DNA of 63,835 bases, taken from positions 1 through 63,835 of IMG/VR virus record IMGVR_UViG_3300007515_000008. One strand, given 5' to 3'. The notes under the pieces are model-generated. The model was not told where the DNA came from, did not search any database, and worked only from the letters and a program-made list of their open reading frames with translations. The position numbers and the translations under genes are program-made. This document shows positions 30,569 through 45,306 of this stretch, piece by piece. Numbering within the stretch: position 1 is the first letter of the stretch; each line of letters opens with the position of its first letter. This stretch comes from a virus (taxonomy: Duplodnaviria > Caudoviricetes).

Positions 30569-31303
30569 TTAAATTAAAGTTTGATTAATTTCATCTAGTT
30601 TAATCATTTTCAAGATACTATCTGTATCTTTTTCATATATATGTAAACTGTCCGCACTAAATGTTAATGTACCTATTCTTAATTTCGGATAAGTACGACC
30701 TAGGTCCCATTGCATCTTTTCCATTAAATACGAAAACCAAGGTAAGTCATATACAGGACCAGTGAATAAATCTGCTGATCTCATCCTTACTGTTGAATGT
30801 AATTTATCTTCTCGTATATGGAAGTTTTGATACATAGTACATACAAAATCCTTTGGATTTAGTTTTGCGTGTTTTGCTTTATTATATCTACATATAGCTT
30901 GTCTACTATCTTTATCTTCTTTTATTGTTCTTAAAGCAAAGTAATACGGTGTAGTATTAAATTCACTATGATCTTTCAATGTTATATGTCCATAGTTAGA
31001 ATTTATTTTACCATCATCATTAGCTATAGTTTTCCAAAACTTACTTGGTGCACCATCTGCTTTTGTATCACCGTTTAAATACCAATCCAATTCTTTTCTA
31101 GTATAGTGTTTTATAATTCTATTCCTATCTATATCATTAGTTATAATAGGATCACTGTTTGGATTGTCTATTGTTATTTGTACATTTAGTTTTTCTCTTA
31201 CTGGCATACCTCTTGGTTTTACTTTATAATCATAATGGTTATAAACAAGCCATAATAATTGAGAGTATGCATCAGATATATTTTTTGCATTATTAACGAA
31301 CAT
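30569..31303 (-). CDS. Thymidylate-synthase-family enzyme, probably dCMP-specific (dCMP hydroxymethylase-like)
   Basis: ELDWY, NSNYG, SRQA, DFVCT, MRSADLFTGPVYDLPW (Asp at the specificity position), SLHIYE. Confidence 0.8.
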   Translation of the reverse strand: MFVNNAKNISDAYSQLLWLVYNHYDYKVKPRGMPVREKLNVQITIDNPNSDPIITNDIDRNRIIKHYTRKELDWYLNGDTKADGAPSKFWKTIANDDGKINSNYGHITLKDHSEFNTTPYYFALRTIKEDKDSRQAICRYNKAKHAKLNPKDFVCTMYQNFHIREDKLHSTVRMRSADLFTGPVYDLPWFSYLMEKMQWDLGRTYPKLRIGTLTFSADSLHIYEKDTDSILKMIKLDEINQTLI

Positions 31304-31315
31304 ATCGCCTCCTTA

Positions 31316-31846
31316 TTATTTATCTCTTATATAATCACCTACTTCATTTAAGTGTCCTGTACGGTCCTTTATCTCATCATAAGCGGATAAAATACAATCG
31401 TATAATCTTATCTTTTGTAGGGCACATTGCATAGTTAATGTTACTATTATATCACCTATAGCATCTATAATTTCTTCTTTATCATTTCTATTAACTGCTT
31501 CTAATAATTCATGGCATTCCTCAAGAGTTTTAATAGCTTGAGTTATAGGTTTACCATTTTTAGTTATCTTTCTTTCATCACCCCATTTAGTTATTAGATC
31601 AATTATCTCATCTATCCAATAATCATTATTAGTATAAGTATTATATTTAGTATACGTTACACCATCAAATGGTACAAAAGTATCTTGTTTACTATCGTAT
31701 CTAGAACTAACAGCTTTATTTAAACTATGTCCACAAAATGGACAATGAGTTGCTGGTTGATCTAATTCAATAGATTCAGTAGCGAAACCCATTTCATCTT
31801 TAACCATAACTTCAAATGGTTCACTTTCACATTTTTGACATCTCAT
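31316..31846 (-). CDS. Zn-ribbon plus MazG-like NTP pyrophosphohydrolase
   Basis: CQKC...CPFC; KTLEECHEL...DAIGDIIVTL...AYDEIKDRTG. Confidence 0.85.
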   Translation of the reverse strand: MRCQKCESEPFEVMVKDEMGFATESIELDQPATHCPFCGHSLNKAVSSRYDSKQDTFVPFDGVTYTKYNTYTNNDYWIDEIIDLITKWGDERKITKNGKPITQAIKTLEECHELLEAVNRNDKEEIIDAIGDIIVTLTMQCALQKIRLYDCILSAYDEIKDRTGHLNEVGDYIRDK

Positions 31847-31848
31847 TT

Positions 31849-32340
31849 TTACTCCTTATTATTCCATATCTTTTTCGGATCCATGTAGTATCCGCCAAAG
31901 TTGGATTCTTTTAATTGTTTAATTATATTTTCAGCAGGCCATAAAGCATATTTTTCAATATTAACACTATCACCAACTTCTAATAATTTACTTTGATCGC
32001 GGTCTGTTTTAATAAATAGAAAATGAGTTAATTCACCTTCTTTTATATTACGAGTCCACCATTTCTTTTTATTTCCACTCTTACCACCAACATTAAACCA
32101 TTTGTTATTAACTTCTTTAATGTCAACAAACATATCTTGAAACCTAAAGTCATTCTTTATACTTTCTGTTTCATCTACAAGTCTTAATGATGATAAATAC
32201 CATTCTAATAATTGAGCATCTAATTGAATTTCAGCTTTAGAATAACCTAAATCCCATTGTTCTTTTCTATGTTTAATAAAACTTTCTCTAACAGGTATTT
32301 CTTTAAAATTATCCATTATATTACAGAGTTCAGCACTCAT
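31849..32340 (-). CDS. Hypothetical protein, possible PD-(D/E)xK nuclease
   Basis: LLEWYL...NDF...VDIKEV spacing. Confidence 0.45.
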   Translation of the reverse strand: MSAELCNIMDNFKEIPVRESFIKHRKEQWDLGYSKAEIQLDAQLLEWYLSSLRLVDETESIKNDFRFQDMFVDIKEVNNKWFNVGGKSGNKKKWWTRNIKEGELTHFLFIKTDRDQSKLLEVGDSVNIEKYALWPAENIIKQLKESNFGGYYMDPKKIWNNKE

Positions 32341-32378: not shown

Positions 32379-32400
32379 CTCTATAAGGGAGTGGTCGAAT
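32379..32400 (-). promoter_or_regulatory. Candidate phage RNAP promoter for middle genes, ATTCGACCACTCCCTTATAGAG
   Basis: Identical 22-mer at 43843 in opposite orientation; T7-promoter-like; overlaps the RNAP stop codon. Confidence 0.75.
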
Positions 32401-34841
32401 TAGCAGAAGAAATAATCTGAATCTATTAATTCTAGTAAGTTGAGTTTCCCTTTCTTCGGTTCAGGTTCTACAAATAGAGGATCATTATTTATAATTTGTC
32501 CTCTCATATCTTTAAATATATTCTTATCATATATATCTATAAATGTTTCTTTTGTTATATGTAATAACTCAGGTACGTTTTCAGCGTGTACACTAAAACT
32601 ATCGTGTATTGCACCAAATGATAAGATACCTGCTTTTTGTAATTCAATTATGACTAACGACATGTGAGCTGCATCCATTGAATGTACATAATTCGGACTG
32701 ATTCCTGAAATCATTTCATGCATTGCAGGACGTTCAGTTTGTTCGTGTACTACTACTTGTATTCTTCCTTGTGTAAATGGTAGTTCTATCTTCTTTTTGT
32801 TCATAATCCACTTCTCAGACACACATGGGAACCCGCTAGGACTTACCCAGCATACTGTATCTTCATTTTGTACACCTACCCTATGCTTGACTAAGGCTTG
32901 TAAGTAATTTTTAATAGAAACAGGACCAGAACAAATTGCATTATAAGTGTGCACAAGATCTTTTGATAGCTTTTTCGCTATTGTTTTTGTGATTCCGTAT
33001 TTTGTTGTCATACCAGCGTCATAGCAATCCATGTAAATAATATCAGCTATACATTTCACTCCAGCATCATAAGCTTTAGTCATAGTTCCTCTTTTACTAA
33101 TACCTTTTCGTATTAATTTCATAGGTATTTCTGCTAATATTTTACCTAAATCAGTACCAATATTTCTATTAAGAATTCCTTTAGCTACTACTATATAAAA
33201 GTCTATTGGTTTTTCTTGTGGAATTAATCCAACCATTCTACCAGCTATTTCATCTTTTGACATCGCAGCTAGATGTTGAGTTCCATTAGAAGATCCATCA
33301 ATAGCAATTGGTAGATTTGAATAATGCTCTTCACCTGATAATACTGAACCATGATAAGCACATATTTCAAAACATATTGATAAGAAAACCCAAGGTTTTT
33401 CAGCTGCCATCCAAATATCTTTAGTACCTATAGGATCTTCTGCTATATTCCAAAATAATTCAGTGTTTTGTTCTGACCATTCTTGTCGATCTTCTAATGA
33501 CATTTTATCTACTGAAAGATCTGGTATTCCATCAGTAACAAGGTCCGTTATATAGTTCGTTTTAGTCCATTCTAATTCAGTTAATTCTGCTACTGTATAG
33601 GACTGATTATAACTATTTGCAGCATGTATTAATAAATATTTAAATCCTTTTTCAGTTACTAGTTGTTTCTCAGCAAATTGTAAATGTCCTCTTGCTAGGT
33701 CATTAGATTGATAAGAAAAGTATGGATCTCTAGCATATACTCTTCCTCTAAAGTCAAGAAACATAGATAAGTAAAATGTGTAAGATGCCCAACCGTTTAT
33801 TCCATGTATGCTATTTAATATTGCATGGTTTCTTGCAGCTTTTGATTGTGTCGCTAAGCATAGTTGTTTTGCTGTCCACATTAAATTGTGTTTGTCAAAT
33901 AATTTACTAAGTTTAGCTATGCTTTTCTTACACTTTTGCATTGCTTTTCCATCTATTTTCAGGTTATTCTTGCGCTTCTCTTCTTTACTTAATTGAGCTT
34001 CAATTGTTTTAACTGTTGTAGCATTTCCTTTGTGAGGTTCGAATAGTGATCCATCTTTATAAAGATTAACGTCTTTATATATTTCATTTATATTTTCTCT
34101 TCTAATATCTTTTGTATCAAATTCAATTTCATCACCATTTTCTGTTTTTAGTTTTATTATTGTTTCAGTTAATTTGTTTGTTAATTGTTCACTCACTTTC
34201 GCAACACTAGCATTTACGCACCACTTAACTTTCTCTAATGTATTAACTGCTTTCACATATTCATCGTATCTATCAATTTCTTTTATCGAGCTTTTAATTA
34301 GTCGATCTTTAATTCCGTCTACCATTCTTACGTTTTGTTTCCAAGCAGGATATTGGTGTCTCGATATTCCTATTCTTTCTTTGTCATCTAATATTATGTT
34401 TCCATATCTATGTCCCATTTCTAAATGATATGGCTGCAGACGCACAGTTCTTTTTTGTCCTCGTTCCATAATTTCTTCTATTGTAAAGAAAGGTTCTCTT
34501 GTTAGTATTAAATATTCGTTATCGATAAGTGTGTTCAGTACTAAACAACCAAGTTTCATTTTAATAACTATATTATCGTTTTCTATATTTAAGTGCCTCA
34601 CGATTATTTCACCAACATTCATATTAGTGTTGGTCAACATAATTTTCCCTTCGTGTCTTTGAAATGTTGATGTAAGATAATTAAACGTTTCTTTAATTAT
34701 ATTCACCATTCGGAAATCATCTCTAAGACAGTTTGCATTTCTTACTTCTTTAATTGCAGAATTATTATTATTTGCACTTCCACTCTGCATGATCTTTTCT
34801 TCTATCGACCAAACTATTTCTTGTACATTACTGTTTTCCAT
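32400..34841 (-). CDS. T7/T3-like single-subunit DNA-directed RNA polymerase
   Basis: LDFRGRVY, SNDLARGHL, AEKPWVFL, PIAIDGSSNGTQH, KRGTMTKAY, PNYVHSMDAAHM, IHDSF, C-terminal YFFC; GGAGG RBS before 34841. Confidence 0.96.
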   Translation of the reverse strand: MENSNVQEIVWSIEEKIMQSGSANNNNSAIKEVRNANCLRDDFRMVNIIKETFNYLTSTFQRHEGKIMLTNTNMNVGEIIVRHLNIENDNIVIKMKLGCLVLNTLIDNEYLILTREPFFTIEEIMERGQKRTVRLQPYHLEMGHRYGNIILDDKERIGISRHQYPAWKQNVRMVDGIKDRLIKSSIKEIDRYDEYVKAVNTLEKVKWCVNASVAKVSEQLTNKLTETIIKLKTENGDEIEFDTKDIRRENINEIYKDVNLYKDGSLFEPHKGNATTVKTIEAQLSKEEKRKNNLKIDGKAMQKCKKSIAKLSKLFDKHNLMWTAKQLCLATQSKAARNHAILNSIHGINGWASYTFYLSMFLDFRGRVYARDPYFSYQSNDLARGHLQFAEKQLVTEKGFKYLLIHAANSYNQSYTVAELTELEWTKTNYITDLVTDGIPDLSVDKMSLEDRQEWSEQNTELFWNIAEDPIGTKDIWMAAEKPWVFLSICFEICAYHGSVLSGEEHYSNLPIAIDGSSNGTQHLAAMSKDEIAGRMVGLIPQEKPIDFYIVVAKGILNRNIGTDLGKILAEIPMKLIRKGISKRGTMTKAYDAGVKCIADIIYMDCYDAGMTTKYGITKTIAKKLSKDLVHTYNAICSGPVSIKNYLQALVKHRVGVQNEDTVCWVSPSGFPCVSEKWIMNKKKIELPFTQGRIQVVVHEQTERPAMHEMISGISPNYVHSMDAAHMSLVIIELQKAGILSFGAIHDSFSVHAENVPELLHITKETFIDIYDKNIFKDMRGQIINNDPLFVEPEPKKGKLNLLELIDSDYFFC

Positions 34842-35061
34842 AATTTCCTCCATAATCATTATCAACTAAATATTTATTATCATCAATTTCTATTACATAT
34901 CCTACTTCTAATGCTTTCTTTAGAAGTTGATCTTCATCTAATTCAAAGTTAAAATTAGGTGCTTGATTCATAAATAGCTCATGTTTAGTAAAAATTACTT
35001 CTTCAACAATTTGAATTGTTTTAACTTTTCCTGGAATTGTCCAGTTATTATTGCTTTTCAT
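34828..35061 (-). CDS. Hypothetical protein
   Basis: 77-aa ORF with AGGAG RBS. Confidence 0.55.
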   Translation of the reverse strand: MKSNNNWTIPGKVKTIQIVEEVIFTKHELFMNQAPNFNFELDEDQLLKKALEVGYVIEIDDNKYLVDNDYGGNYGKQ

Positions 35062-35169
35062 GATACTCTCCTGTCTTTTTAGCTTGTTTTTTCTTATCTG
35101 GTATTATTTTTGTATGCCATATTTTACTATGTCTTAAAGCATATTTTAGTTTATTTTTAATCCTGTGTT

Positions 35170-36141
35170 TCATTCTTTCTCCTTATATCTATTCCAGTCT
35201 AATTTATCATTCCAATCTTCACCAGTTTCTTCAGGAATAAATACATAAGCTTTTATTCCTTTCATTTTCATTTTCTTAGCTAGAACGTATGCTGCGGCTT
35301 GTCCTGTGAATGATGCGTCATTATCACCATATATCATTACACATTCCACACCATTTGGTGGAATAAAGTTTTCTAAACAATGTGCATTAGTAGACGCGAA
35401 TGCTGGGTATCCACAATCTAAACTACCCGCGTATGCTGATTCAATTCCTTCTGCTACGCAAATTGTGCTTATACCATTTCCAGAATCACAGTAAGAAGCA
35501 AGTACAGATTTTTCTATCCAATCAGTATCTAAACGTATTGATGCTCCAGTTATTGTACCTTTTGGTGGCATAACTTTTCTAGCACTCTTTAGATCTGCTT
35601 TCTTACCATCTTTTGTGTATGTGATATGGAATGACACTCCATCTCCTTTAAAGTCTTGTATTAAACTAACCATGCAATCAAATTTACCTTTAGATTTTCC
35701 ATCTTCAAAGTAATCTAACCTTGCTTGTTTTAATCCATCTGGAATATCTTTAAATCCTCTTGATCTTAAGTAAAGACCAACAGATCCGTTCCATTCTATT
35801 GGTTTCAATTGTTTTGCTACATAATTTAGTGCTGGTCGTGGATCTTTCTTTGGTACAACTTCAACTTTTTCAAGTTTACCAAGTCCCACTAGCGGCTCTA
35901 TATGTTCTACAGCAGTACGGAAATCCCACTTGTATAACTTTTGTACTAGTGTCCAACCATTTCCGTTACCACATCCTCTACATAAATATACTCCATCACC
36001 ATTTAGATCTGTGAAAGTATATCTATCTTTACCTCCACATAATGGGCAAGGACCATTTTTATTTTGCAGGTATTTATCATCAACACCAAGTGTTTTGAGA
36101 ATACCGTGCCATCTGCCTTTTACGGCTTCGGTTACATCCAT
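35170..36141 (-). CDS. DNA primase (P4-alpha-type Zn-binding domain plus Toprim)
   Basis: GPCPLCGGKDRY...CRGC; YLRSRG; VAEGIES; YGDND...GQ; DWND. Confidence 0.9.
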   Translation of the reverse strand: MDVTEAVKGRWHGILKTLGVDDKYLQNKNGPCPLCGGKDRYTFTDLNGDGVYLCRGCGNGNGWTLVQKLYKWDFRTAVEHIEPLVGLGKLEKVEVVPKKDPRPALNYVAKQLKPIEWNGSVGLYLRSRGFKDIPDGLKQARLDYFEDGKSKGKFDCMVSLIQDFKGDGVSFHITYTKDGKKADLKSARKVMPPKGTITGASIRLDTDWIEKSVLASYCDSGNGISTICVAEGIESAYAGSLDCGYPAFASTNAHCLENFIPPNGVECVMIYGDNDASFTGQAAAYVLAKKMKMKGIKAYVFIPEETGEDWNDKLDWNRYKEKE

Positions 36142-36155
36142 ATTATTACTCCTTA

Positions 36156-36413
36156 TTATTTACTATCGTTTGCTGCGCATTTAGTGTCCCAGTGTTTTGC
36201 CCAGAAATTTAGGATTTTAGACGATGTTATTCTATCAAGTTCATCATTAACATCAATGTCAATTTCTATTTCTCTTTTTACTGGTTCATTTGGTTTTACT
36301 TCGCTTGCATTATTTATTAATTTATAGCTTCCTGTTGGAATACTAGAAATATCTAATAAGTCAAACAACATTAACTGTTCATTCAAACCATCGCAAGTCA
36401 TTGTTATTTTCAT
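36156..36413 (-). CDS. Hypothetical early protein
   Basis: ORF with TAAGGAG RBS. Confidence 0.55.
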   Translation of the reverse strand: MKITMTCDGLNEQLMLFDLLDISSIPTGSYKLINNASEVKPNEPVKREIEIDIDVNDELDRITSSKILNFWAKHWDTKCAANDSK

Positions 36414-36426
36414 TTGTTACTCCTTA

Positions 36427-36816
36427 TTATAATGTTATATTTCTATACCAAGGCGTTTCTCTCTTTTCCCTAGCATAAGCTTCTTTTTCATTTGATTCAA
36501 TATCTTCAAAATCAAAACGATCTTCAGTATATTGTTCCAAATGTATTAGCTCATGTCTTAATACTTGATTAAATTCGTCAAGTATATCTTGAGCTTCGAT
36601 CCAACTGATATTAACACCTTTTTCGTGTGTATGAATATCAATTTCGATTGGTGTACTGATACTCTCTACTTCAAAATAAGGATTAAAAGCTCCACATATA
36701 ACTATATCGTATTGTTTTATATCATCATTTTGAATTAAATTTACAGTAACTTTATCTGTATCGATTTTGTTTTGAATTATTTTTAAGAGATCTTCATTTG
36801 TCATGTTGTTCTCCAA
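36427..36816 (-). CDS. HExxH zinc-metalloprotease-like protein
   Basis: VLRHELIHLEQY...NEKEAY. Confidence 0.6.
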   Translation of the reverse strand: MENNMTNEDLLKIIQNKIDTDKVTVNLIQNDDIKQYDIVICGAFNPYFEVESISTPIEIDIHTHEKGVNISWIEAQDILDEFNQVLRHELIHLEQYTEDRFDFEDIESNEKEAYAREKRETPWYRNITL

Positions 36817-37060
36817 ATAATTCCTTTATTACTTCGTTATAGACTTCCTCTTTTGACAATTCTGTATGGTGCCATCTTTTTCGACGACCATATATTGCCT
36901 GCACATTGTCTTTTATATATTTCTTAATATCTTTATCAGAGTGTGTTCTTGTTCCTTCGAACATGATCGCAACATCTTCATAAATACTATCAACTATATG
37001 AAATACAAAATTCCAATCTTCGCGAGTCAATCCATTAATCGTCCCGCTTTTGTTTTCCAT
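36794..37060 (-). CDS. Hypothetical early protein
   Basis: ORF with AGGAG RBS. Confidence 0.55.
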   Translation of the reverse strand: MENKSGTINGLTREDWNFVFHIVDSIYEDVAIMFEGTRTHSDKDIKKYIKDNVQAIYGRRKRWHHTELSKEEVYNEVIKELFGEQHDK

Positions 37061-37442
37061 ACATTTCTCCTAAAAGATTATGTGTTATTAAGGCTTTGTT
37101 ACTAACTTCATCGCCTAGTAGAACTGGATATAAGTTTTCATTTAAATATTCATCGACTTCTTCATCGAATTCATATTCTACCGTGTCAAATGGTTCTTCT
37201 TCTGGTAGATTAAAAATGTAATAACCTAATGTCCAAGCTTGTTTTAGGAATTCAAGAGCTAAACCTTTCTTTTTAACATCTATGAATCCTGTCTTTTCAT
37301 CGACTAAGTTTAAATATATTTTTTCTATAGTTTTTAATTCGTCGATCATTTCATCTTTGGCTATACTTCTATAGGTTTCCCATATTCTCTCATAGTCTTC
37401 TTCTTTTTTCCAATCACTTGAGTTCATCCAATGTGTACTCAT
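37035..37442 (-). CDS. Hypothetical acidic early protein
   Basis: ORF with AAGGAGG RBS. Confidence 0.6.
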   Translation of the reverse strand: MSTHWMNSSDWKKEEDYERIWETYRSIAKDEMIDELKTIEKIYLNLVDEKTGFIDVKKKGLALEFLKQAWTLGYYIFNLPEEEPFDTVEYEFDEEVDEYLNENLYPVLLGDEVSNKALITHNLLGEMYGKQKRDD

Positions 37443-37457
37443 ATTACCTCCTTCGTT

Positions 37458-37727
37458 TTATCCTGGTAAATCTTCTTCTTTATGACCTTGAAAAGCTTTA
37501 TCAGAATTTTTATAATTAACAATATTACTTAATATTTCTAAAACATCCTCATCTGAACATTTACCTCTTCCTAATTGGTCGACTAAATCTTCTAATGATT
37601 CTAATAAGTTAAAATGCTCATATTCTATATCACATTCTAAACATATAGGTGGGATAAGTATTTTACCGTCAGGATCTTCATAAGTTAAAGCATCAGAAGA
37701 ACCACATTTATTACAAATTACACTCAT
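37458..37727 (-). CDS. Small Zn-finger protein
   Basis: CNKC...CLEC; AAGGAGG RBS before MSVIC. Confidence 0.55.
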   Translation of the reverse strand: MSVICNKCGSSDALTYEDPDGKILIPPICLECDIEYEHFNLLESLEDLVDQLGRGKCSDEDVLEILSNIVNYKNSDKAFQGHKEEDLPG

Positions 37728-37738
37728 ATTACCTCCTT

Positions 37739-38035
37739 TTATAGTAGTTTTTCCCATTGATATTCATCTGTAGAAGTTTGGTATACTTTTTCAGGTCTTT
37801 TGTATTGCTCGTCATTACCCATTTCATACCGTTCGGCTTCACGGTTTGTTTTATATTCTAAAGCAGAGTCTTCGTCTTCTCTTATTCTTTTGTAATGTTC
37901 TTCATCTGTTATTACATATAGAATTTGCCATTTTATCCACCAACTATATACTTCATTTAAATTATATGGTAGTTTATAATAGTCTTGAGTCGAATGCCAA
38001 GCTTCAACTAAAAAACTTGTTTTTTCTTTACTCAT
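37739..38035 (-). CDS. Hypothetical early protein
   Basis: ORF with GGAGGT RBS, ATGA overlap. Confidence 0.55.
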   Translation of the reverse strand: MSKEKTSFLVEAWHSTQDYYKLPYNLNEVYSWWIKWQILYVITDEEHYKRIREDEDSALEYKTNREAERYEMGNDEQYKRPEKVYQTSTDEYQWEKLL

Positions 38036-38334
38036 TTTATTTTCACCTCCCTTATTATTATTTTAGATATATCATGTACTTCATTCCATCCAATATTTAA
38101 AGTTGGATGTCTATGCATTCTTACATGATCCATAGACAGAATATCAGCTATGATTTCTCTATTTAATGGTTTTAATTCCAGTGAATATAATTCAGCTTTA
38201 CTATCTGGTGTCGCATATTTTATTATTTCTAAAGCTTTTACAGCTTTGTCTTTGCGTCCATAATATTTGCTGAATATTAATTCATCTGTAATTTCATGCC
38301 AATAATGTTTATTTGTTATTTCATATACTATCAT
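38032..38334 (-). CDS. Hypothetical early protein
   Basis: ORF with TAAGGAG RBS. Confidence 0.55.
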   Translation of the reverse strand: MIVYEITNKHYWHEITDELIFSKYYGRKDKAVKALEIIKYATPDSKAELYSLELKPLNREIIADILSMDHVRMHRHPTLNIGWNEVHDISKIIIREVKIK

Positions 38335-38463
38335 TATTACTCCTTATATATACATGTGCCATAAGTATGGTAAATATCCAATACATAATCCTACCACAAA
38401 ACCTTTGAATTGTTCTGCGTATTTCGGATTTTTATAATGTTCATATTTAATCATATTATCCTC

Positions 38464-39030
38464 CTATGCTCTAAAGTAATAACCATCTTCTTCAAAATAG
38501 TCATACATAAGTTCATGAGCAGCAGATTCCCAATCTATGCAATTCATCGGCCAATCCTCTCCACCTTCATCAAATCCAAGTGTTTCAGATGCCATTTCTC
38601 TTGCAAAGTCTTCATCATCATCATAATAACCTATATAACTTTCTTCTATATCACATAATTCCATATAGTTTTCTAAGGCAGCATTAACAGCTGCAATAGG
38701 TATGTGCTCATTATCTCTTAAGAATTCGATATATTCAAATATCTCATCCATTTCCATTGCTTCATCACTTTCTACACCATCAGGCCAATCTTGAAAATCT
38801 TGAAACATAAATTCAGGATCGTCTTCATCTTCGTGTATTTGCATACAACGTTCTAAGAAATCTTGTTCATTACCATAGTCAGCTATCGTTACCCACTCAC
38901 CATGTAGATCACCTTCGGCATATTTCTTATAAGTTCCAACATATACTTTTATTTCTTCTATTGCTTTTTCACGTTCTGTTTGTTCAGTATATTTTTGAAA
39001 CGCTCTTAGTTCTTCTGTTGTCATTGCCAT
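38464..39030 (-). CDS. ardA: Antirestriction protein ArdA (DNA mimic)
   Basis: VYVGTYKKY..G.L.GEW, PEFMFQD, YIGYYDDDEDFA, IDWESAAHEL..DY, GYYFR; highly acidic. Confidence 0.88.
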   Translation of the reverse strand: MAMTTEELRAFQKYTEQTEREKAIEEIKVYVGTYKKYAEGDLHGEWVTIADYGNEQDFLERCMQIHEDEDDPEFMFQDFQDWPDGVESDEAMEMDEIFEYIEFLRDNEHIPIAAVNAALENYMELCDIEESYIGYYDDDEDFAREMASETLGFDEGGEDWPMNCIDWESAAHELMYDYFEEDGYYFRA

Positions 39031-39173
39031 TTTTCACCTTCCTTATTTTTATTTGTTGATTTTAATTTGCTAAGCTTTCTTTGGAGCTTCAAGTTCTTAG
39101 CATATTGCTTCACGGCAATATCGTGCGCCGCTTTTTGTACTTTTTCTGATTTATTCATATTATTTCCTTATGA

Positions 39174-39347
39174 TTATATTTCTTTTATCCAACCTACGCA
39201 TAGTTGCGCGTCTTCTGGTTCACATACCAGAGGATCTGCACTATTTTGTAGGACCCTTTGCTCGTTAAACTTTTCTTCTAACGAGCTGCATCCAGTTATT
39301 AATGTGACTAATAACTGTAATACTATTATTAAAGCTATAGTTTTCAT
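39174..39347 (-). CDS. 57-aa lipoprotein (not in ORF track), possible superinfection exclusion
   Basis: TAAGGAG RBS; MKTIALIIVLQLLVTLITG-C lipobox. Confidence 0.6.
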   Translation of the reverse strand: MKTIALIIVLQLLVTLITGCSSLEEKFNEQRVLQNSADPLVCEPEDAQLCVGWIKEI

Positions 39348-39865
39348 CTAGTGTAACTCCTTATTGTATCTGAATCAAGTTCTATTTGATCTAACAAATC
39401 TTGTATTTCATCTTGATTCATTTCTTGTAGTTCTTTGATCTTATCCATGTGTTTCTTGATTCTTACCTTAGCATTAAATAACCATGTGTTATGACTATCT
39501 TCTGCATAATACACATCGAAATATTCAGCGTGTTTATGTGGTAAGTATTGATCATAGTATCTACGATTATGTCCATCAGCTAGAGCGTGTTTAACTCTTG
39601 GACCACGTGGCATGAGACGAACTCTCATAAGTGAATTCCAATTACCTAATTCCCAGTTACGTTTTAAAGCGAATTTTCTGGCATGAGCATTATGCTTAGC
39701 AGCTTTCTTCTTTAAATCCAAAACTAATGGATGTTTCTTGTGACTAACGGTAAAACGATACATTAGAGAACCTCTTTTTTCGTGGTTCATTTTGATTTCG
39801 TTATCACCTAGATAATTAGTGTCGTTTGATAATCTCAAGACACTAGTGTGTTTTGCTTTTTTCAC
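39344..39865 (-). CDS. Hypothetical basic early protein
   Basis: 173 aa, GTG start with TAAGGAG RBS. Confidence 0.6.
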   Translation of the reverse strand: MKKAKHTSVLRLSNDTNYLGDNEIKMNHEKRGSLMYRFTVSHKKHPLVLDLKKKAAKHNAHARKFALKRNWELGNWNSLMRVRLMPRGPRVKHALADGHNRRYYDQYLPHKHAEYFDVYYAEDSHNTWLFNAKVRIKKHMDKIKELQEMNQDEIQDLLDQIELDSDTIRSYTR

Positions 39866-39893
39866 GTTATACTCCTTATATTATTATTATATT

Positions 39894-40268
39894 TTACCAC
39901 GGATAGACTCTTGCAGAGCCAGCATCGTGCCATTCAATAATGCAATTATTATTATCTGCAATATTTTCAAGTTCTGAATGAATCCAAGGACAGCCATTAC
40001 AACTGCCATAACCCTCGTATTCTCCGTAGTAGTTTAACCACTTGTAGCTGTGTGGTTCTTCAGCACTTATACCAAATGAAGTCGCACGACCTTTTTCGTC
40101 TTCTTCATATGATCCGTCAGAGTAGGTTTCAAATATAGGTACATTACCTATACTTTTGCCTTCAATATCTTCAACATATAATTTCTTCATTTGATTTAGT
40201 GCAGTTCTTAAATTTCTTTTCATTTTCATTTTATTACTCCTTTGTTTTATGTAATGGATCTTTTTCAA
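39894..40268 (-). CDS. Hypothetical early protein
   Basis: ORF; likely start about 40229 after AAGGAG. Confidence 0.55.
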   Translation of the reverse strand: MKKIHYIKQRSNKMKMKRNLRTALNQMKKLYVEDIEGKSIGNVPIFETYSDGSYEEDEKGRATSFGISAEEPHSYKWLNYYGEYEGYGSCNGCPWIHSELENIADNNNCIIEWHDAGSARVYPW

Positions 40269-40755
40269 GTTCGATTTTTATTCTTTCTAATCGATCTTTT
40301 AATAATGGATTTACATACTTTAAATCGACTTCTGGCATCCAATATTCCCATAATGCTAACATGATATCGCCAAATGGTCCATTTTCCCAACGATCAAACA
40401 TGTTTATGTTGTTTAAACGGTCTATCGGACTACATCTGCGGAAACATTGTTTTGCTATTCTTTCGATTTCAGTATATATTTCCTTATTCGTACATTCACC
40501 AGATTCAATCATAGCAACAATAATCTCAGCAGTTGAATCTTTTGCAAGATTAATAACTACTTGAGTTTTTTGATACGTATTATTGTTGTATAAGTGTATT
40601 AGTTGCTCAATATCATCGTTATCCAATTCATATAAATGATCTGGATTAGATCTATTTAGCAGTTTTTGTACGCTTTCTCTTAGCTTTATATCGCCGTGCG
40701 ACATTGCTCTTTTTAACTTTGACATAGCTTTTACCTCCAAAGTATTGTTGAACAT
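40234..40755 (-). CDS. Hypothetical early protein
   Basis: ORF; likely start MSKLK at about 40725 after GGAGGT. Confidence 0.55.
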   Translation of the reverse strand: MFNNTLEVKAMSKLKRAMSHGDIKLRESVQKLLNRSNPDHLYELDNDDIEQLIHLYNNNTYQKTQVVINLAKDSTAEIIVAMIESGECTNKEIYTEIERIAKQCFRRCSPIDRLNNINMFDRWENGPFGDIMLALWEYWMPEVDLKYVNPLLKDRLERIKIELEKDPLHKTKE

Positions 40756-40915
40756 CTACCCATAATGGGTAGTTCCCATCTTTATCTTTATCAAACTTGG
40801 TATATGTTACACCATTTTTAGTTTGATATGTGATAAAAATTCCTTTTTCTTTGAGTTTACTAGCAACCCAACTTAGTCGTCTTAAGGTCGACCATTTCTT
40901 TTTAGTCTTTTTCAT
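40652..40915 (-). CDS. Hypothetical basic protein
   Basis: 87-aa Lys-rich ORF with GGAG RBS. Confidence 0.5.
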   Translation of the reverse strand: MKKTKKKWSTLRRLSWVASKLKEKGIFITYQTKNGVTYTKFDKDKDGNYPLWVDVQQYFGGKSYVKVKKSNVARRYKAKRKRTKTAK

Positions 40916-40916
40916 A

Positions 40917-41219
40917 TTATCTCCATCCTAGTTTCTTTTCAAGATATTGCACGTTGTTTTTTAATTGGAAGTTATCTTCATTCATCATATGATTTTCATT
41001 TTGTAATCGAAATATTGTCGCTTCCATTTCTAAACTGTCTTGCATTAATTTATCATATCGCTCTGCCCATGCTTCTAGTGATTCATTGTCTTCTATATCT
41101 TTTTCAATTTCAGTTTTTTGTTTTTGAACTTTATCTTTTATATATTGTTCTTTAACTTTTTCTAATATTTCAGAATTATCTACTATATCACATGCTTTTG
41201 TATATTCATTTATACTCAT
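40917..41219 (-). CDS. Coiled-coil early protein
   Basis: ORF with TAAGGAG RBS. Confidence 0.55.
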   Translation of the reverse strand: MSINEYTKACDIVDNSEILEKVKEQYIKDKVQKQKTEIEKDIEDNESLEAWAERYDKLMQDSLEMEATIFRLQNENHMMNEDNFQLKNNVQYLEKKLGWR

Positions 41220-41229
41220 ATTATACTCC

Positions 41230-41445
41230 TTATTCTAAGTTTTTCTTGACTTGTTCGTCAAATTGTTGGAATGAATGACAGTTACAGTATCTTTCTTGGT
41301 GTATTGCAGCTACCAATTCAAGATTTGGATGTATTAAACTGTCACATTTTTTACAGCGCTCACCTTCAGCCGCTATAATGTTTTTAATGTATGTTTGGTA
41401 CATTAATTTTTTTGTTGCTAATAACATTTTGTTTCTCCTTTTCAA
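41230..41445 (-). CDS. Small Cys-containing protein
   Basis: CKKC...CNCH; likely start MLLAT after AAGGAG. Confidence 0.5.
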   Translation of the reverse strand: MKRRNKMLLATKKLMYQTYIKNIIAAEGERCKKCDSLIHPNLELVAAIHQERYCNCHSFQQFDEQVKKNLE

Positions 41446-41451
41446 AAATTA

Positions 41452-41507
41452 AAATTACATTTGTAAAACTACATTTGCGAAGCTACATTTGCGAAACTAC
41501 ATTTGTC
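41452..41507. repeat. 4 x 14-bp tandem repeat (AAACTACATTTGCG consensus)
   Basis: aaattacatttgta, aaactacatttgcg, aagctacatttgcg, aaactacatttgtc; intergenic. Confidence 0.9.
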
Positions 41508-41731
41508 GCACTGACCTTAACGAACTCTATCGTCTACAGTGGCTTGGCTTATCTACCTACCATGCCCTGATTTCGGTTTTAAGTCCTGTTTAAAATAACC
41601 TCTCTTACATTTCAATCTATATATTTTCTTGAAGATAGTACTCCTTATATAGATGGTTAAGATCTCTTTCTTTTATGTCTCGAAATCTTTAAGACTTTTC
41701 ATTTCATAGGCATCTCCTTATATTTATGAAA

Positions 41732-42007
41732 TTATTGTGTTACTTCTTTAAGTGATACAGCAAGCTTTTCAATACAATCAAGTTCATGAATACCTTCTTG
41801 AATTACATTGAGCAAAATATGGTGTTTCAATTCTGCTGTTGTTGTAACATCAGGTGGTATTCTAACACAAAACATTTGATCTTTATTTGTTTCAGCTATT
41901 TCTATCGCTTTTTCTGGAATTATCTTATTGTGACCAACTAACCAAGCTACCTGGTCTTTTTCAGTTAATTCCGCAGTCCAGTCTTTTGGACTATCTCTTA
42001 TAATCAT
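41732..42007 (-). CDS. Hypothetical early protein
   Basis: ORF with AGGAG RBS. Confidence 0.55.
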   Translation of the reverse strand: MIIRDSPKDWTAELTEKDQVAWLVGHNKIIPEKAIEIAETNKDQMFCVRIPPDVTTTAELKHHILLNVIQEGIHELDCIEKLAVSLKEVTQ

Positions 42008-42131
42008 GATCTTTCTCCTATCATGAGTGATTCTTACTAATCAGTGTTAATAATTCTTAACTGATCGTAAGCTAGAAAAGCAATGAGAGCAACTGACGCT
42101 GCTCCCATCACTATAAGCAATATCACCAGCA

Positions 42132-42470
42132 TTAAGCTTGTGTTTCTTCTGGTAATATTTCGACGACTTTGTAAGCGTTCACAAAGACATCTGTTTTCCA
42201 AGAACCGTCGACATTTTTCTCTGTCTTCTCGATTCTTGCTTCTACAGATACTTTCGTACCCTTCTTAAGTCCTTCGATCGCTTTGCGAGCGGTATTCGCG
42301 AACACAGTCACGAACCACCATGTGGGTTCTCTTTTAACCCAAGACTTTGTAGTCTCATCATAGTAGTCGTTTGATTCAGCGATACGGAGCTTTCCAAACT
42401 CCTTACCGTTTTTCGCTTTACCCATTTCTGAGTCTTGGCCTAAATGACCAACAAACGTTAACTTTGCCAT
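42132..42470 (-). CDS. ssb: Bacterial-type single-stranded DNA-binding protein (OB fold, no acidic tail)
   Basis: LTFVGHLGQDSE...LRIA...PTWWFVTVF...LKKGTKVSVEARI. Confidence 0.85.
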   Translation of the reverse strand: MAKLTFVGHLGQDSEMGKAKNGKEFGKLRIAESNDYYDETTKSWVKREPTWWFVTVFANTARKAIEGLKKGTKVSVEARIEKTEKNVDGSWKTDVFVNAYKVVEILPEETQA

Positions 42471-42487
42471 AATAATTCTCCTTATAA

Positions 42488-42647
42488 TGACAGTTTATGC
42501 CCGAATAGCCCATCTATTCGGATCGGTTTAAGGATCGACGATCCTTATGTGAGCACACTCACACTAAACTGGAATGTACTCAGATAAAGAAAGTGAGCAG
42601 TTTTAACACATGTGACCACGCTCAGGATAACGTGTCTGCTCAGGTGC
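42488..42647 (-). promoter_or_regulatory. Structured RNA leader upstream of ssb
   Basis: Several stems with G-U pairs in - sense; loop CAGTTTA is complementary to TAAACTG near the RBS. Confidence 0.6.
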
Positions 42648-42658
42648 GGAGAGTTTAT

Positions 42659-42892
42659 TTAAGTGTATCCTGGATGACCTTTTTCTTTCATTCTTTTAAC
42701 ATGGTCATCATGTAGATCACTTCTATTACTACAGTCTACACTATTGTGATCAGTATATTCTATACATAATGCAGTTAAATGTTTCTTTAATCTCCATTTG
42801 CTTAAAGGTATAAAATCATCTAATCTATCTTCTAAATCATCTATTTTATATTCAAGATGTTGTATTTTCTTCATTAGTTCTTTTGTTGACAT
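42659..42892 (-). CDS. Hypothetical early protein
   Basis: ORF with TAAGGAG RBS. Confidence 0.55.
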   Translation of the reverse strand: MSTKELMKKIQHLEYKIDDLEDRLDDFIPLSKWRLKKHLTALCIEYTDHNSVDCSNRSDLHDDHVKRMKEKGHPGYT

Positions 42893-42954
42893 ATATTACT
42901 CCTTATAATTAAAAAATGCGGCCTTTTTACTTGGATACCGCAGCAAGGTCGACC

Positions 42955-43146
42955 TTAGATCTCGTTGTATCGCTCTTTCCAGCGTACGAATTCTTCATAG
43001 AGTTCTGGATCATCGAATTTTAGCTCTATGATTGGAGCTTCTAATTCGTTGAGCGACATTTGTCGCATCTCAAATGATCCTTCAGCTCCCATGAATTCTT
43101 CATAGAGAACGAGATCGTTTCTGGCTTTCGCCATTTTCTCAACCAT
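42955..43146 (-). CDS. Hypothetical early protein
   Basis: ORF with AAGGAGG RBS. Confidence 0.55.
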   Translation of the reverse strand: MVEKMAKARNDLVLYEEFMGAEGSFEMRQMSLNELEAPIIELKFDDPELYEEFVRWKERYNEI

Positions 43147-43494
43147 GATAACCTCCTTTAGTTATTATAGTTTATTAGAAATATGATTAGAAATATTAAA
43201 GAGACTGCTAAAATCTTCCACAATCTCTTCATTTCTGAATCCCAAGCAAATGTTCTTTCGATCCATTTGTTCTTCATTATATCTCCTTATATTTAATCTC
43301 AGCTTCATTACTAAGATTCGATCAAGTGATCGGCAATAGGACCTCTTTCGAAGCCCTATTAACTGTCACTTATATTTGTCATTGATGCGATCGTTCATGT
43401 CCATGAAGAACGGAACGAATACACAACATAATCCAATGATACCAAATACAAATATCATTAGATGAATCGCGAAATGTTCTAACATAATAGTCTC

Positions 43495-43806
43495 CTATGA
43501 TTTAGAAGGTATAGGCTCGATAAGATCTTTCACTTCTATCAAGTGTCTTACAACATCTCGAGCGTCTAGATACTTTAAAGTATCATCAGTAATATGAGTA
43601 TCGTAAGTAATATCACCTTTCTGATCTAGCACTGCCATCTCGAAATAGCGAACATCTTTACTGATACTGTATTCATCGGGTTTTCTATATACATTGTACA
43701 TAGTGTTCACGACGCTGGCTCCATAACCATTAGGGAATTTATATATCGTCACAAATCCATAAGAATTCTCCCTTTCTTTCACGATATATTGGTCGAAATC
43801 TGACAT
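43495..43806 (-). CDS. Conserved phage early protein
   Basis: YKFPNGYGASVV...EMAVL...ITYDT motif recalled from other phages. Confidence 0.65.
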   Translation of the reverse strand: MSDFDQYIVKERENSYGFVTIYKFPNGYGASVVNTMYNVYRKPDEYSISKDVRYFEMAVLDQKGDITYDTHITDDTLKYLDARDVVRHLIEVKDLIEPIPSKS

Positions 43807-43842
43807 AATAATCTCCTTATAATGTCGTTAAAAAGATCATAG

Positions 43843-43864
43843 ATTCGACCACTCCCTTATAGAG
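43843..43864 (+). promoter_or_regulatory. Candidate phage RNAP promoter for the late arm, ATTCGACCACTCCCTTATAGAG
   Basis: Exact inverted copy of 32379..32400; intergenic; points toward terminase and structural genes. Confidence 0.7.
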
Positions 43865-43951
43865 AAGAAATATAAGGTAAGACTGAATGAATCTGAATCT
43901 ATGATATTCCCTTGGGCAAGGAATTAGATAATCCCTATATGCCCAAAGCAA

Positions 43952-44242
43952 TTATAGACAGCCCCATTTCTTGAGCTGTGATTTACTAAAATCTCCATAC
44001 TGTTGCAGATTTTTAAGATCTTCTGCTTCTTCTTGGAGTCTTTCTTTGTGTTCAGCATTAGCTTTATCACAAAGATCCTTTAGTTCTATCTGACGATCTT
44101 TTTCAGATAATTTAGAGAATTCGTTTCTTGAGAATTCTCCAGGTCTTGAACCAAATACATCTTTAAAAGCATCACTAAAGAATTGTAGATCAGCTTCTAA
44201 AGGTGTGTAATCTTGCCACGGATCTCTACGTTTTACTGACAT
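43952..44242 (-). CDS. Hypothetical early protein
   Basis: FFSDAFKDVFGSRP motif; AAGGAG RBS. Confidence 0.6.
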   Translation of the reverse strand: MSVKRRDPWQDYTPLEADLQFFSDAFKDVFGSRPGEFSRNEFSKLSEKDRQIELKDLCDKANAEHKERLQEEAEDLKNLQQYGDFSKSQLKKWGCL

Positions 44243-44432: not shown

Positions 44433-44765
44433 TTATCTCTTCCAGGCTCCGATCGTGTTGAGGCCTATAGACTCAAGATCGTCCGCAGAGAATACATCCT
44501 CTGGAGAGACCGTAACAGTCTTAATGTAAGAGAAGTGGTTATCCCTAAGATCTACTTGCACTTCGGCTTGTAATGCATCATTAAACCAGATGTGAGTGTG
44601 ATCACCCAGAATAGAGTGAGTCCACTTAGTAGAGTTATGGACGTACGATACTACATTCTTAATGGCTTGCTTGCTAAGGCTAGCGATGTAGTGACTACGA
44701 TCTGTTGGATTTAGATCGTTTAGTTTTTTGATCATTGATTGATCGGGATTTAATTTGTATTTCAT
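44433..44765 (-). CDS. First gene of the early arm, hypothetical
   Basis: 110-aa ORF with AAGGAG RBS. Confidence 0.6.
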   Translation of the reverse strand: MKYKLNPDQSMIKKLNDLNPTDRSHYIASLSKQAIKNVVSYVHNSTKWTHSILGDHTHIWFNDALQAEVQVDLRDNHFSYIKTVTVSPEDVFSADDLESIGLNTIGAWKR

Positions 44766-44820
44766 TTGATATCTCCTTTATTATTATAAAAGTGCATAGT
44801 AAATAATGCACATGAGCTCT

Positions 44821-44876
44821 TGATCTTGATCTCTTATCTCTGATCTCTTGATCTGAAGCTCGGGGGCACTTGATCT
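44821..44876. repeat. Cluster of five TGATCT hexamers and ATCTCTT heptamers at the divergent junction
   Basis: TGATCT at 44821, 44827, 44841, 44849 and 44871; ATCTCTT x3 also at 44421..44441. Confidence 0.8.
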
Positions 44877-44924
44877 TATGCTCGTAGGCTCTTTATATAG
44901 ATTTAACCCACAGGTGATAAACAT

Positions 44925-45185: not shown

Positions 45186-45250
45186 AAAATTATTTAGAAA
45201 ACGTACAGAGCTCTCAACAGAGCCCATTCGTATCGACAGGATCGCTACGT

Positions 45251-45306
45251 AAGAACATACAGGGAAAGCAGCAGCCTCGGGGTTGCTACAGTTCTGTATG
45301 TTTTTT
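45251..45306 (+). promoter_or_regulatory. Long hairpin plus U-run before terS (attenuator or processing site)
   Basis: AACATACAGGG...TTCTGTATGTT outer stem, AGCAGCC-TCGG-GGTTGCT inner stem, then a T-run. Confidence 0.55.

Follow-up and report, generated by a model that had tools for sequence, protein, structure and literature searches.

Two inverted 22-bp sites as candidate promoters for the T7-type RNA polymerase of an uncultured marine phage

Gene arms and the 22-bp pair

The window, by which we mean the whole stretch of DNA analysed, is a complete marine phage record of 63.8 kb, its genes forming two divergent arms. Its main features are as follows.

1..22421, + strand: second part of the late arm, with fibre-like proteins, virion proteins and giant proteins (ORFs, PHROG)
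18774..22421, + strand: last late-arm gene, encoding a second, divergent single-subunit RNA polymerase (RNAP)-like protein of 1215 aa
22423..22468, both strands: bidirectional terminator-like hairpin (A-run, 7-bp GC-containing stem, T-run) where the arms converge, read directly from the sequence
22470..32340, - strand: presumed middle transcription unit downstream of the - copy of the motif, with a 163-aa ORF, MazG, thymidylate synthase, gp2.5-like SSB, helicase, YqaJ exonuclease, NrdA, NrdB and small ORFs (ORF list, Pfam/PHROG matches)
32379..32400, - strand: RNAP-proximal motif copy, an exact match in the 59-nt gap from the RNAP stop to the next ATG
32400..34841, - strand: T7-type single-subunit RNAP gene, 813 aa from the ATG at 34841 (longest ORF from a TTG at 34865); the early genes, on the - strand, end with it
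43843..43864, + strand: distal inverted motif copy, an exact match in the 145-nt gap between two - strand ORFs
44766..44924, between the divergent arms: inter-arm region, with a hairpin immediately before the first early gene and four copies of CTTGATCT at 44819-44876
45331..63835, + strand: first part of the late arm, with a DUF5681 protein, large terminase, portal, scaffold, major head protein and fibre-like proteins (PHROG and Pfam)

The start of the late arm at 45331 was set after the homologue in a related locus, L003. At the end of the window this arm is broken off inside a repeat-domain gene, and the window starts with the continuation of the same repeat domain, its first 89 aa matching the internal repeats of the last ORF; both window ends fall on the motif TGFRPA. 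ORFs in the late arm are tightly packed, with few gaps. The motif CTTGATCT occurs 10 times in the window (3.59 expected), and four of the 10 copies lie within 44766..44924, presumably the site of the early promoters. A scan for sigma-70-type promoters gave no more matches than expected from shuffles, and none stood out as an early or a late promoter. The window has no Rfam or tRNA match, and a nucleotide search with 30000-46000 against a phage collection also gave none.

The 22-mer ATTCGACCACTCCCTTATAGAG is present exactly twice, at 32400..32379 on the - strand and at 43843..43864 on the + strand, as an inverted pair 11,442 bp apart. With up to 3 mismatches allowed the same two sites alone were found, and none of 100 dinucleotide-preserving shuffles contained any match. 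A scan of the full window with up to 8 mismatches gave two sites at 0, none at 1-6, three at 7 and 15 at 8, and the 10-nt core CCTTATAGAG with at most one mismatch gave six sites against 5.33 expected, that is, nothing beyond the two exact copies. The 22-bp site lacks dyad symmetry. An earlier sequence-only reading had described an exact 22-bp inverted pair, intergenic at both ends, with unrelated flanks and no further copy; each of these points was borne out, by the shuffles, by the 59-nt and 145-nt gaps, by the flanking sequence and by a next-best site that carries 7 mismatches.

The - copy overlaps the RNAP stop codon by 1 nt, its first base being the final base of that codon, and is placed 41 nt upstream of the following ATG; an AAGGAG ribosome-binding site stands in between. 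It has the same orientation as the next gene and faces the DNA-metabolism genes; by analogy with T7, the G at 32381 is predicted as its +1. The + copy, for which the G at 43862 is the predicted +1, is directed towards the structural arm, with the first + strand ORF 1063 nt away and the first conserved late gene 1469 nt away. It is embedded in the early operon, with about 1.06 kb of antisense, through two conserved early genes, before the late arm. There is no copy in front of the early genes or of the RNAP gene, which agrees with a site whose reader has to be synthesised beforehand. The likeness to T7 promoters proposed in the sequence-only reading stands for the TATA-G end, which is real; the alignment of the upstream half with '2 extra nt' carries little weight because only the 3' part (CCTTATAGAG) is conserved in the clade. 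A 13-nt string, AATCTGAATCTAT, also lies near both copies in the window; it was judged a chance occurrence, since L003 does not keep it.

The polymerases and the site in related phages

The start of the 813-aa RNAP was chosen after P0001, which is 99% identical. The protein matches Pfam RNA_pol (E 3.8e-70) and phrog_414 (E 1.6e-109), its best solved match by sequence is T7 RNAP (E 8.2e-42), and its catalytic motifs IDGS and IHDSF and the motif B K/Y are invariant. An AlphaFold model (pLDDT 85.5) has a beta-hairpin at residues 686-713, the position of the T7 specificity loop, and the T7 RNAP-promoter complex (1cez_A) is the top Foldseek match of the model, with E 6.8e-27 and TMq 0.69. The N-terminal third gave no match to Pfam RPOL_N, although in the model the full length of the protein can be superposed on T7 RNAP. 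RNAP matches in the phage collection are all less than 60% identical, with the best 25 listed at 22-27%.

Among 80 related loci from IMG/VR, 30 have a site of the form [CG]N[CT]T?TATAG[AG][AG] no more than 113 nt after the RNAP stop, where the background rate is 0.010 per 113 nt. These 30 all fall among the 51 loci whose RNAP is 44-91% identical, of which the other 21 have no such site directly after the RNAP gene; none of the 29 loci at 39-41% has it. The core CCTTATAGAG, or a close variant, is common to the 30 loci, and the 5' half falls into 10 classes. In L003 and L005 the 21-mer of the - copy stands at the same place, and the + copy is kept in L003 and L004 with one change, at the first base. 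Exact matches to the 21-mer in IMG/VR number 10, eight of them in the context of the + copy.

The second, inverted copy also recurs. In nine related records the lineage's own version of the motif is repeated in inverted orientation 7.6-14.2 kb upstream of the RNAP gene: at -10.1 kb in L003, -11.2 kb in L008, -7.6 kb in L038 and -7.8 kb in L053, and at 12.8-14.2 kb in all five whole records scanned, with one copy in G001 and two in tandem in each of G002-G005. The reversed-pattern control of the whole-record scan gave 0 matches, and its one extra match was to the core only. The distal copies are directed at the DUF5681 and large-terminase genes in G001, G003, G004, G005 and L003, and in the first four of these they are embedded 0.9-3.1 kb deep in the early operon. 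In L053 the distal copy lies in the divergent gap itself, beside a co-oriented gene, with no antisense stretch.

The residues at the positions of T7 R756/Q758 are R/Q here; across the 10 promoter classes there are nine different pairs, identical within each class. The specificity-loop segment of the RNAP thus changes with promoter class, a co-variation confounded by shared descent.

The 1215-aa protein encoded at the end of the late arm, next to the gene for a 1543-aa virion protein, matches Pfam RNA_pol at 32.1 bits (cutoff 22) and phrog_414 (E 8.8e-14). Its residues D734, K826, Y834, G835 and D1081 are invariant in 11 homologues and, in an alignment with the T7-type enzyme, fall in its motifs A and B. 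All five related records searched have a homologue. A phmmer search with this protein found no solved relative, and the structure model of residues 443-1215 (pLDDT 49.8) was too poor for use. The sequence-only reading had not noticed this second RNAP-like gene, whose place among the virion genes leaves a slight doubt as to which polymerase reads the motif.

Readings of the pair and the path to the late arm

A rightward transcript from the + copy would cross the following features before reaching the late arm.

43865..43951, + strand: conserved non-coding leader with a hairpin, directly downstream of the + copy
43952..44242, - strand: early ORF of 96 aa, antisense to the + transcript (L003 protein 51% identity, E 8e-31)
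44433..44765, - strand: first early ORF, 110 aa, antisense to the + transcript (L003 protein 48% identity, E 3e-21)
44697-44729, on the path of the + transcript: terminator-like hairpin (terminator scan)
45195..45312, + strand: conserved non-coding element with a strong fold, immediately preceding the first conserved late gene
45278-45306, within that element: hairpin followed by a T-run, flagged as terminator-like by the scan

The leader at 43865..43951 has near-identical counterparts in L003 and L004, in contrast to the flanking coding DNA, which has diverged. Proteins encoded on the path share only 48-51% identity between the window and L003, and yet the motif with about 90 nt after it is almost unchanged. 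RNAalifold gave a consensus hairpin for the leader in four close relatives; of its 15 pairs, 2 have changed at both positions with pairing retained. The single-sequence fold is unexceptional (z -1.15), and five sequences that include distant lineages have no consensus structure. The element at 45195..45312 has a near-identical counterpart in L003, despite the lack of the adjoining 86-aa ORF in that locus, and it folds at -38 kcal/mol (z -5.33; 0 of 200 shuffles as good). Public RNA data (six runs, contigs only) gave 29, 6, 0 and 22 pieces on 30500-50400 in X15-X18, at low depth and unstranded, with no transcript start discernible in them.

The sequence-only reading had proposed a promoter for the phage's T7-type RNAP, and this is the best fit to the comparative evidence: the position, the orientation, the conserved initiation core, the lineage-specific upstream half and the recurring inverted second copy. 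We consider it probable that both copies are promoters for the phage's own 813-aa T7-type RNAP, and most likely the pair are the only two promoters that this enzyme reads. The early genes, with the RNAP gene last, would be transcribed first by another polymerase, and the new RNAP would then start at the G after TATA at two sites. From the - copy it would transcribe the DNA-metabolism block from 32340 to 22470; from the + copy it would run rightward, antisense through two early genes and then along the structural arm of about 41 kb. The 3' part of the site (CCTTATA followed by GAG) may be a melting and initiation module common to the whole clade, and the 5' part (TTCGACCACT) a lineage-specific element read by the specificity-loop hairpin. 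RNAP-dependent initiation at both sites, and the early and late timing, are predictions of this scheme. That the + transcript supplies the late mRNAs seems to us somewhat the better supposition, and a single promoter for the whole arm of about 41 kb is plausible by analogy with cyanophage Syn5. Against a one-promoter late arm stand the position of the + copy, 1.06 kb inside the early operon, and the two terminator-like hairpins on the path.

The same features allow both copies to be T7-type RNAP promoters of which the + copy would serve antisense shut-off of the early genes and promoter region, or replication priming, with the late mRNAs coming from a promoter near 44870-45330. This we regard as rather unlikely, although it accounts for the position of the + copy inside the early operon, with two protein-conserved - strand genes on its path, and for the same embedding, 0.9-3.1 kb deep, in G001, G003, G004 and G005. 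It agrees as well with the terminator-like hairpins at 44697-44729 and 45278-45306, with the conserved structured element directly before the first late gene, and with other lineages that have their own repeats immediately upstream of that gene. It is opposed by the late arm itself, which is tightly packed with few gaps and in which no second repeated promoter-like motif was found in the window, by L053, whose distal copy sits in the divergent gap without an antisense stretch, and by the Syn5 precedent, one promoter for more than 37 kb (PMC3950665).

A more elaborate version of the promoter reading, which we put forward as a tentative possibility, is a two-polymerase relay. The 1215-aa putative virion protein or a host enzyme would start the early genes, and the T7-type RNAP would fire from two sites only. 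With the late site buried in the early operon, the late transcript would switch off the first early genes and their promoters head-on, and the leader, through two alternative hairpins, would tune read-through.

That the motif is read by the 1215-aa protein (18774-22421) and not by the 813-aa enzyme is quite improbable. The protein keeps polymerase motifs, is present in five of five related records and, by shared descent with the motifs, would co-vary with them equally with the 813-aa enzyme. However, if injected with the DNA, it should have promoters in front of the early genes and of the 813-aa RNAP gene, and the motif stands before neither; the 813-aa enzyme would be left without any repeated candidate promoter, and a T7-type enzyme agrees with a duplex site of the TATA-G type and with the variable hairpin loop. 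An improbable reading of another kind takes the pair as sites for some other sequence-specific protein (a regulator, a replication or a packaging factor) with no promoter role, since conservation and lineage co-variation imply only a phage-encoded reader and not the role of that reader. The absence of dyad symmetry, the TATA-G start signature at the end of the site, an orientation that matches the downstream genes, in the case of the + copy after 1.06 kb of antisense, and a position equal to that of the first phage promoters after gene 1 in T7 speak for promoters instead. The sequence-only reading had also named inversion of the 11.4-kb segment between the copies as what the pair might do. Exact inverted repeats 11,442 bp apart would suit such a role; we nevertheless consider it extremely improbable and set it aside. 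Pfam scans of the 22 ORFs of the segment (20 between 34828 and 43806, the RNAP and the primase) and of further ORFs (eight in one scan and ten in another) gave no recombinase family, and the window and all nine related records with both copies have one and the same orientation. The tandem distal copies of four relatives fit promoters and not crossover sites, the site is not dyad-symmetric, and a flip would sever the early genes from their upstream region.

Comparison with known phage transcription systems

In T7 the first phage promoters are located after gene 1. Taken as promoters, the two sites resemble those of the T7 group (T7, T3, SP6; the 'T7-like' category of PMC11880802) in being duplex sites of about 21-23 bp that end in TATA and then G, in a conserved initiation end with a variable -12..-8 that tracks the specificity loop, and in a first site right after the RNAP gene; the fold of the RNAP also matches the T7 RNAP-promoter complex. 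They differ in that this phage has two sites per genome, on opposite strands of a two-armed genome, whereas the 'T7-like' category averages about 13 promoters per genome (PMC11880802), in an upstream half that needs a gap to align with the T7 consensus, and in an RNAP without a Pfam RPOL_N match.

The coliphage N4 relay, in which a virion RNAP is followed by the T7-type RNAP II, offers another likeness. N4, too, has a podovirus-like genome and two single-subunit RNAP-family proteins, the large one among the virion genes and the smaller T7-type enzyme among the early genes. The N4 virion RNAP has about 3500 aa, in contrast to 1215 aa for the putative virion protein here, and N4 RNAP II is not known to be a single full-length chain with a specificity loop, unlike the small enzyme of this phage. 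No early promoters of the hairpin type were found in the present phage.

The genes of cyanophage Syn5 run in one direction. Syn5 is a marine phage, too, and its RNAP uses only two promoters, as is predicted for the present phage; one of them serves more than 37 kb, and the Syn5 promoter is given as a unique sequence of 15 bp (PMC3950665). Syn5-like promoters number 18 in nine genomes (PMC11880802). The site described here differs in its 21-22 bp and its TATA-G end, and the two predicted promoters diverge, one lying within the early operon in antisense orientation.

Among cultured phages, the nearest relative found is Roseobacter phage CRP-7 (MK613349), whose portal is 45% identical and whose RNAP is 33% identical over 532 aa. 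It has two convergent arms as well, with a T7-type RNAP in the replication arm, and this RNAP is described as distant from Autographivirinae, at less than 25% identity, in passages of PMC6918029 that contain no promoter analysis. CRP-7 lacks the 22-mer; scanning it for TATAG turned up a single family-like candidate, which lies upstream of gp67, and no motif that is repeated. The only giant protein of CRP-7 compared, gp33, showed no BLASTP similarity to the 1215-aa protein. In the literature, the matches listed for the motif string, 10 of 33 papers, were unrelated primers, and none of these 10 contained the phage-specific 14-mer.

The pair thus offers a concrete RNAP-promoter candidate from a lineage far from the enzymes in use, with all phage-collection matches less than 60% identical. 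The roughly ten natural specificity variants in relatives form a series for examining how the specificity loop reads -12..-8, and for orthogonal expression parts. If about 41 kb is served from one site, the polymerase should be highly processive, like that of Syn5. The data also suggest a transcription plan for an abundant uncultured marine group, with a pair of divergent phage promoters, of which one would run antisense to early genes, and a second polymerase-like protein encoded among the virion genes. Promoter mining that keeps repeat groups of at least three subsequences, as in PMC11880802, may miss two-copy designs such as this pair.

Genome layout and the 22-bp pair

The record (63,835 bp, without end repeats) has a CheckV completeness estimate of 100%, and the runs that contain it are marine or seawater metagenomes. 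It begins (1-271) and stops (59647-63835) at one and the same position of a repeated protein domain (TGFRPA...) and so probably represents a circular map opened within a fibre-like gene rich in repeats; the + arm would then form one stretch of about 41 kb. Tandem repeats of 36 nt (12 aa) also occur at 54063-55063, within a 781-aa fibre-like gene. The features used here are as follows.

44925 to window end plus 1-22421, +: late arm, with a DUF5681 protein, large terminase, portal, scaffold, major head protein, fibre-like proteins and giant virion proteins
44765 to 22470, -: small early genes including ArdA and SSB, then primase and the T7-type RNA polymerase (RNAP), then MazG, thymidylate synthase, gp2.5-like SSB, helicase, exonuclease, NrdA and NrdB
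32400-34841, -: gene of the 813-aa T7-type RNAP
32379-32400, -: 22-bp site (- copy)
43843-43864, +: 22-bp site (+ copy)
43865-43951: conserved leader, about 90 nt after the + copy
44697-44729 and 45278-45306: terminator-like hairpins on the path of the + copy
45195-45312: 118-nt non-coding element, which includes the second hairpin
18774-22421, +: gene of the 1215-aa RNAP-like protein, the last late gene
22423-22468: arm junction, a hairpin with flanking A-run and T-run

The 22-mer ATTCGACCACTCCCTTATAGAG occurs exactly twice in the window, and none of 100 dinucleotide-preserving shuffles contained any match to it. Allowing up to 3 mismatches added no site; the full mismatch-tolerant scan gave two sites at 0 mismatches, none at 1-6, three at 7 and 15 at 8. 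The 10-nt core, with at most one mismatch, was found at six sites (5.33 expected), which is chance level. These counts indicate that the phage carries only the two sites, with no degenerate versions. Both copies lie in gaps between ORFs, and their flanking sequences are unrelated. The sequence-only reading, which had described an exact, inverted, intergenic pair with unrelated flanks and no further copy, was thus borne out on each of these points.

The polymerase and its predicted promoters

The RNAP ORF matches Pfam RNA_pol (E 3.8e-70) and starts at the ATG at 34841, as does a 99%-identical database protein. All 2729 records of the phage collection that match it are less than 60% identical, the best 25 of the 2729 being at 22-27%. 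The closest cultured relative found was Roseobacter phage CRP-7 (portal 45% identical, RNAP 33% over 532 aa); the accessible text of the CRP-7 paper gives no promoters. By sequence, the best solved relative is T7 RNAP, and an AlphaFold model built with 17 sequences (pLDDT 85.5), in which a long beta-hairpin is formed by 686-697/700-713, gave the T7 RNAP-promoter complex 1cez_A as its best Foldseek match (E 6.8e-27, TMq 0.69). In T7 RNAP, N748, R756 and Q758 contact promoter bases; the residues aligned to them are E694, R701 and Q703.

We searched for the site in relatives. The RNAP protein search (E 1e-20 or better) returned 171 homologues with identities from 99% down to 29%, the best 114 of the 171 at 42-99%, and 80 loci were kept from the IMG/VR profile scan. 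The pattern [CG]N[CT]T?TATAG[AG][AG], scored within 113 nt after the RNAP stop, was present in 30 of the 80 (background 0.010 per 113 nt). All 30 belong to the 51 loci with an RNAP 44-91% identical, 21 of which have no site, and none of the 29 loci at 39-41% identity has one. The lineages have the 3' part in common (CCTTATAGAG, or its variants GGTTATAGAG and CCCTATAGGA); the 5' part depends on the lineage, and relatives supply nine natural classes besides that of the window.

The site recurs at longer range in related genomes. Inverted repeats of the lineage's own 23-mer lie upstream of the RNAP gene in four loci (L003, 10.1 kb; L008, 11.2 kb; L038, 7.6 kb; L053, 7.8 kb), and in L040 and L045 the 23-mer is found again on the same strand, 6.6-7.2 kb downstream. 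Five related records (G001-G005) were scanned whole, as the 10-kb flank gave no second copy, and all five had inverted copies 12.8-14.2 kb upstream: one in G001, and two in tandem, 0.4-0.6 kb apart, in G002-G005. Each of these is the lineage's full 24-mer; one further match was core-only, and the reversed-pattern control gave 0 matches in the five records. The distal copies of G001, G003, G004, G005 and L003 are aimed at DUF5681 and terminase genes across 0.9-3.1 kb of intervening - strand ORFs, and that of L053 lies directly inside the divergent gap. On 9 IMG/VR contigs there are 10 exact matches to the window's 21-mer, eight in the distal context and two after the RNAP gene. The identity of the copies within each genome, set against their divergence between genomes, suggests a single genome-encoded reader.

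When 18 RNAPs are aligned, the conserved PSGFP... and SGISPNYVHS blocks enclose a variable stretch, and it is this stretch that corresponds to the specificity loop of T7.

Sites after the RNAP gene and residue pairs (positions opposite T7 R756 and Q758 in the 18-RNAP alignment)
Window: site TTCGACCACTCCC...; residues R/Q
L003: residues R/Q
L006: residues T/M
L008: site TCTCGTCCTACGGG...; residues K/V
L009: residues T/G
L010: residues H/Q
L038: site TCTCGACCATCACCC...; residues Q/G
L045: residues Q/N
Two ATTCCTAT... classes: residues R/D
Six loci of the ATCTCTAAGTA class: residues K/H
L053 group: site ATCTCTAAGTAKCCC...
G001: site AATCCTAAGAGCTCC...
G002, G003: site AATTCCTATTGTGYCC...
G004, G005: site ATTCCTATGTTGCCC...

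This pattern, which is confounded by shared descent, fits a specificity loop that would recognise the site's upstream half. Another motif, the 15-nt TAGGTGGGGYAAAAG, directly follows the RNAP gene in 7 loci belonging to a different sub-clade; the loci cited for it are L019, L022, L024, L027, L032, L035, L049 and L050, and also L101 (8200-8214). In L019 it is also found inverted, 9.6 kb upstream, and G001, which bears its own CCTTATAGAG-type sites, has it 35-49 nt ahead of its first late gene. The window does not contain this motif.

Proposed promoter pair, improbable inversion ends and the late arm

The recurrence of the site, its lineage-specific 5' half and the predicted T7-like fold of the RNAP support the earlier proposal of a phage RNAP promoter pair, and we consider it quite probable that the 813-aa enzyme uses both copies as promoters. 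The - copy begins on the last base of the RNAP stop codon, and the distance from the predicted start to the next ATG, which is preceded by AAGGAG, is 41 nt. The T7 genome likewise has a phage-polymerase promoter directly after the polymerase gene. The - copy would be the first phage-polymerase promoter, driving the DNA-metabolism block; from the + copy, also acting as a promoter, the same enzyme would transcribe toward the late arm. The start is likely the G after TATA, at 32381 in the - copy and 43862 in the + copy. No 22-bp site lies ahead of the early genes or the RNAP gene, which fits a reader that has to be made first.

The two inverted copies might instead be the ends of an invertible 11.4-kb segment, a reading that we regard as very improbable. 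Pfam scans of the segment (20 ORFs in 34828-43806, plus the RNAP and primase genes) found no recombinase family, and the segment has the same orientation in all 9 relatives with both copies. The 22-bp site has no dyad symmetry, four relatives carry tandem distal copies, and inversion would part the early genes from their upstream region.

For the two copies as promoters, a further question is whether the + copy serves the late arm, as had been proposed. Two - strand ORFs, of 103 aa and 96 aa, flank the + copy, which is directed rightward, away from the former and toward the late arm. A precedent is the marine phage Syn5, whose RNAP, according to the accessible text of PMC3950665, works with two promoters, one covering more than 37 kb; the window resembles Syn5 in its number of predicted promoters. 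Against the proposal, the route crosses the 96-aa and 110-aa ORFs antisense, which are real genes, conserved as proteins in L003 (51% and 48% identity), and passes both terminator-like hairpins. From the + copy it is 1063 nt to the first + ORF and 1469 nt to the first late gene (45331) that is conserved in L003. On balance, we lean slightly toward late mRNAs originating from the + copy.

The non-coding element stands just before this conserved late gene and is nearly identical in L003, though the adjacent 86-aa ORF (44925-45185) is missing there. Its fold (-38 kcal/mol, z -5.33) is far better than those of shuffles, and the element could serve as a processing site or an attenuator, or have another role. 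The leader contains a hairpin in which two pairs are kept through two-sided changes. Comparison of the leader covered the related loci L105, L109 and L110; in both L105 and L110, a single G-to-T substitution is accompanied by C-to-A at each of its two possible partners, a hint of two alternative pairings that probably reflects a single evolutionary event. RNA-library contigs of relatives (runs X15 and X18) match up to 43953 and are unlike the window beyond, so that the conserved leader ends where strains differ in gene content. The public RNA runs, unstranded contigs at low depth, showed no transcript start.

A second polymerase-like protein and other elements

The 1215-aa protein matches Pfam RNA_pol (32.1 bits; cutoff 22) and phrog_414, and aligns with the T7-type family across motifs A and B. 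Residues D734, K826, Y834, G835 and D1081, among them the catalytic Asp, Lys and Tyr, do not vary across 11 homologues, and all 5 related records searched encode a homologue. A phmmer search with the protein returned no solved relative. Because it is encoded among giant virion proteins, its position suggests a virion polymerase packaged in the manner of N4. If injected, this protein would more plausibly read early promoters than the 22-bp motif; sigma-70-type promoter scans showed no clear early promoter.

A promoter for a phage single-subunit RNAP is a well-known kind of element. New here are the promoter specificity and the polymerase lineage, the divergent two-site layout with the late site antisense inside the early operon, and the predicted second polymerase-like virion protein in the same genomes. 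In the accessible part of PMC11880802, predicted promoters are grouped as T7-like, KP34-like, phiKMV-like and Syn5-like, and 741 genomes are left without a definite promoter prediction.

Pfam or PHROG scans of about 55 window ORFs revealed no DNA polymerase family, although a primase, helicase, two SSBs and an exonuclease are encoded. Between the divergent arms, CTTGATCT occurs four times within 58 nt (44819-44876, +), and the whole window has 10 copies (3.59 expected). A CAAATGTAR-containing unit is present in four tandem copies with a period of 14 nt at 41455-41505 (-), in a 286-nt early-arm gap; these repeats are iteron-like and could be an origin or a regulator site.
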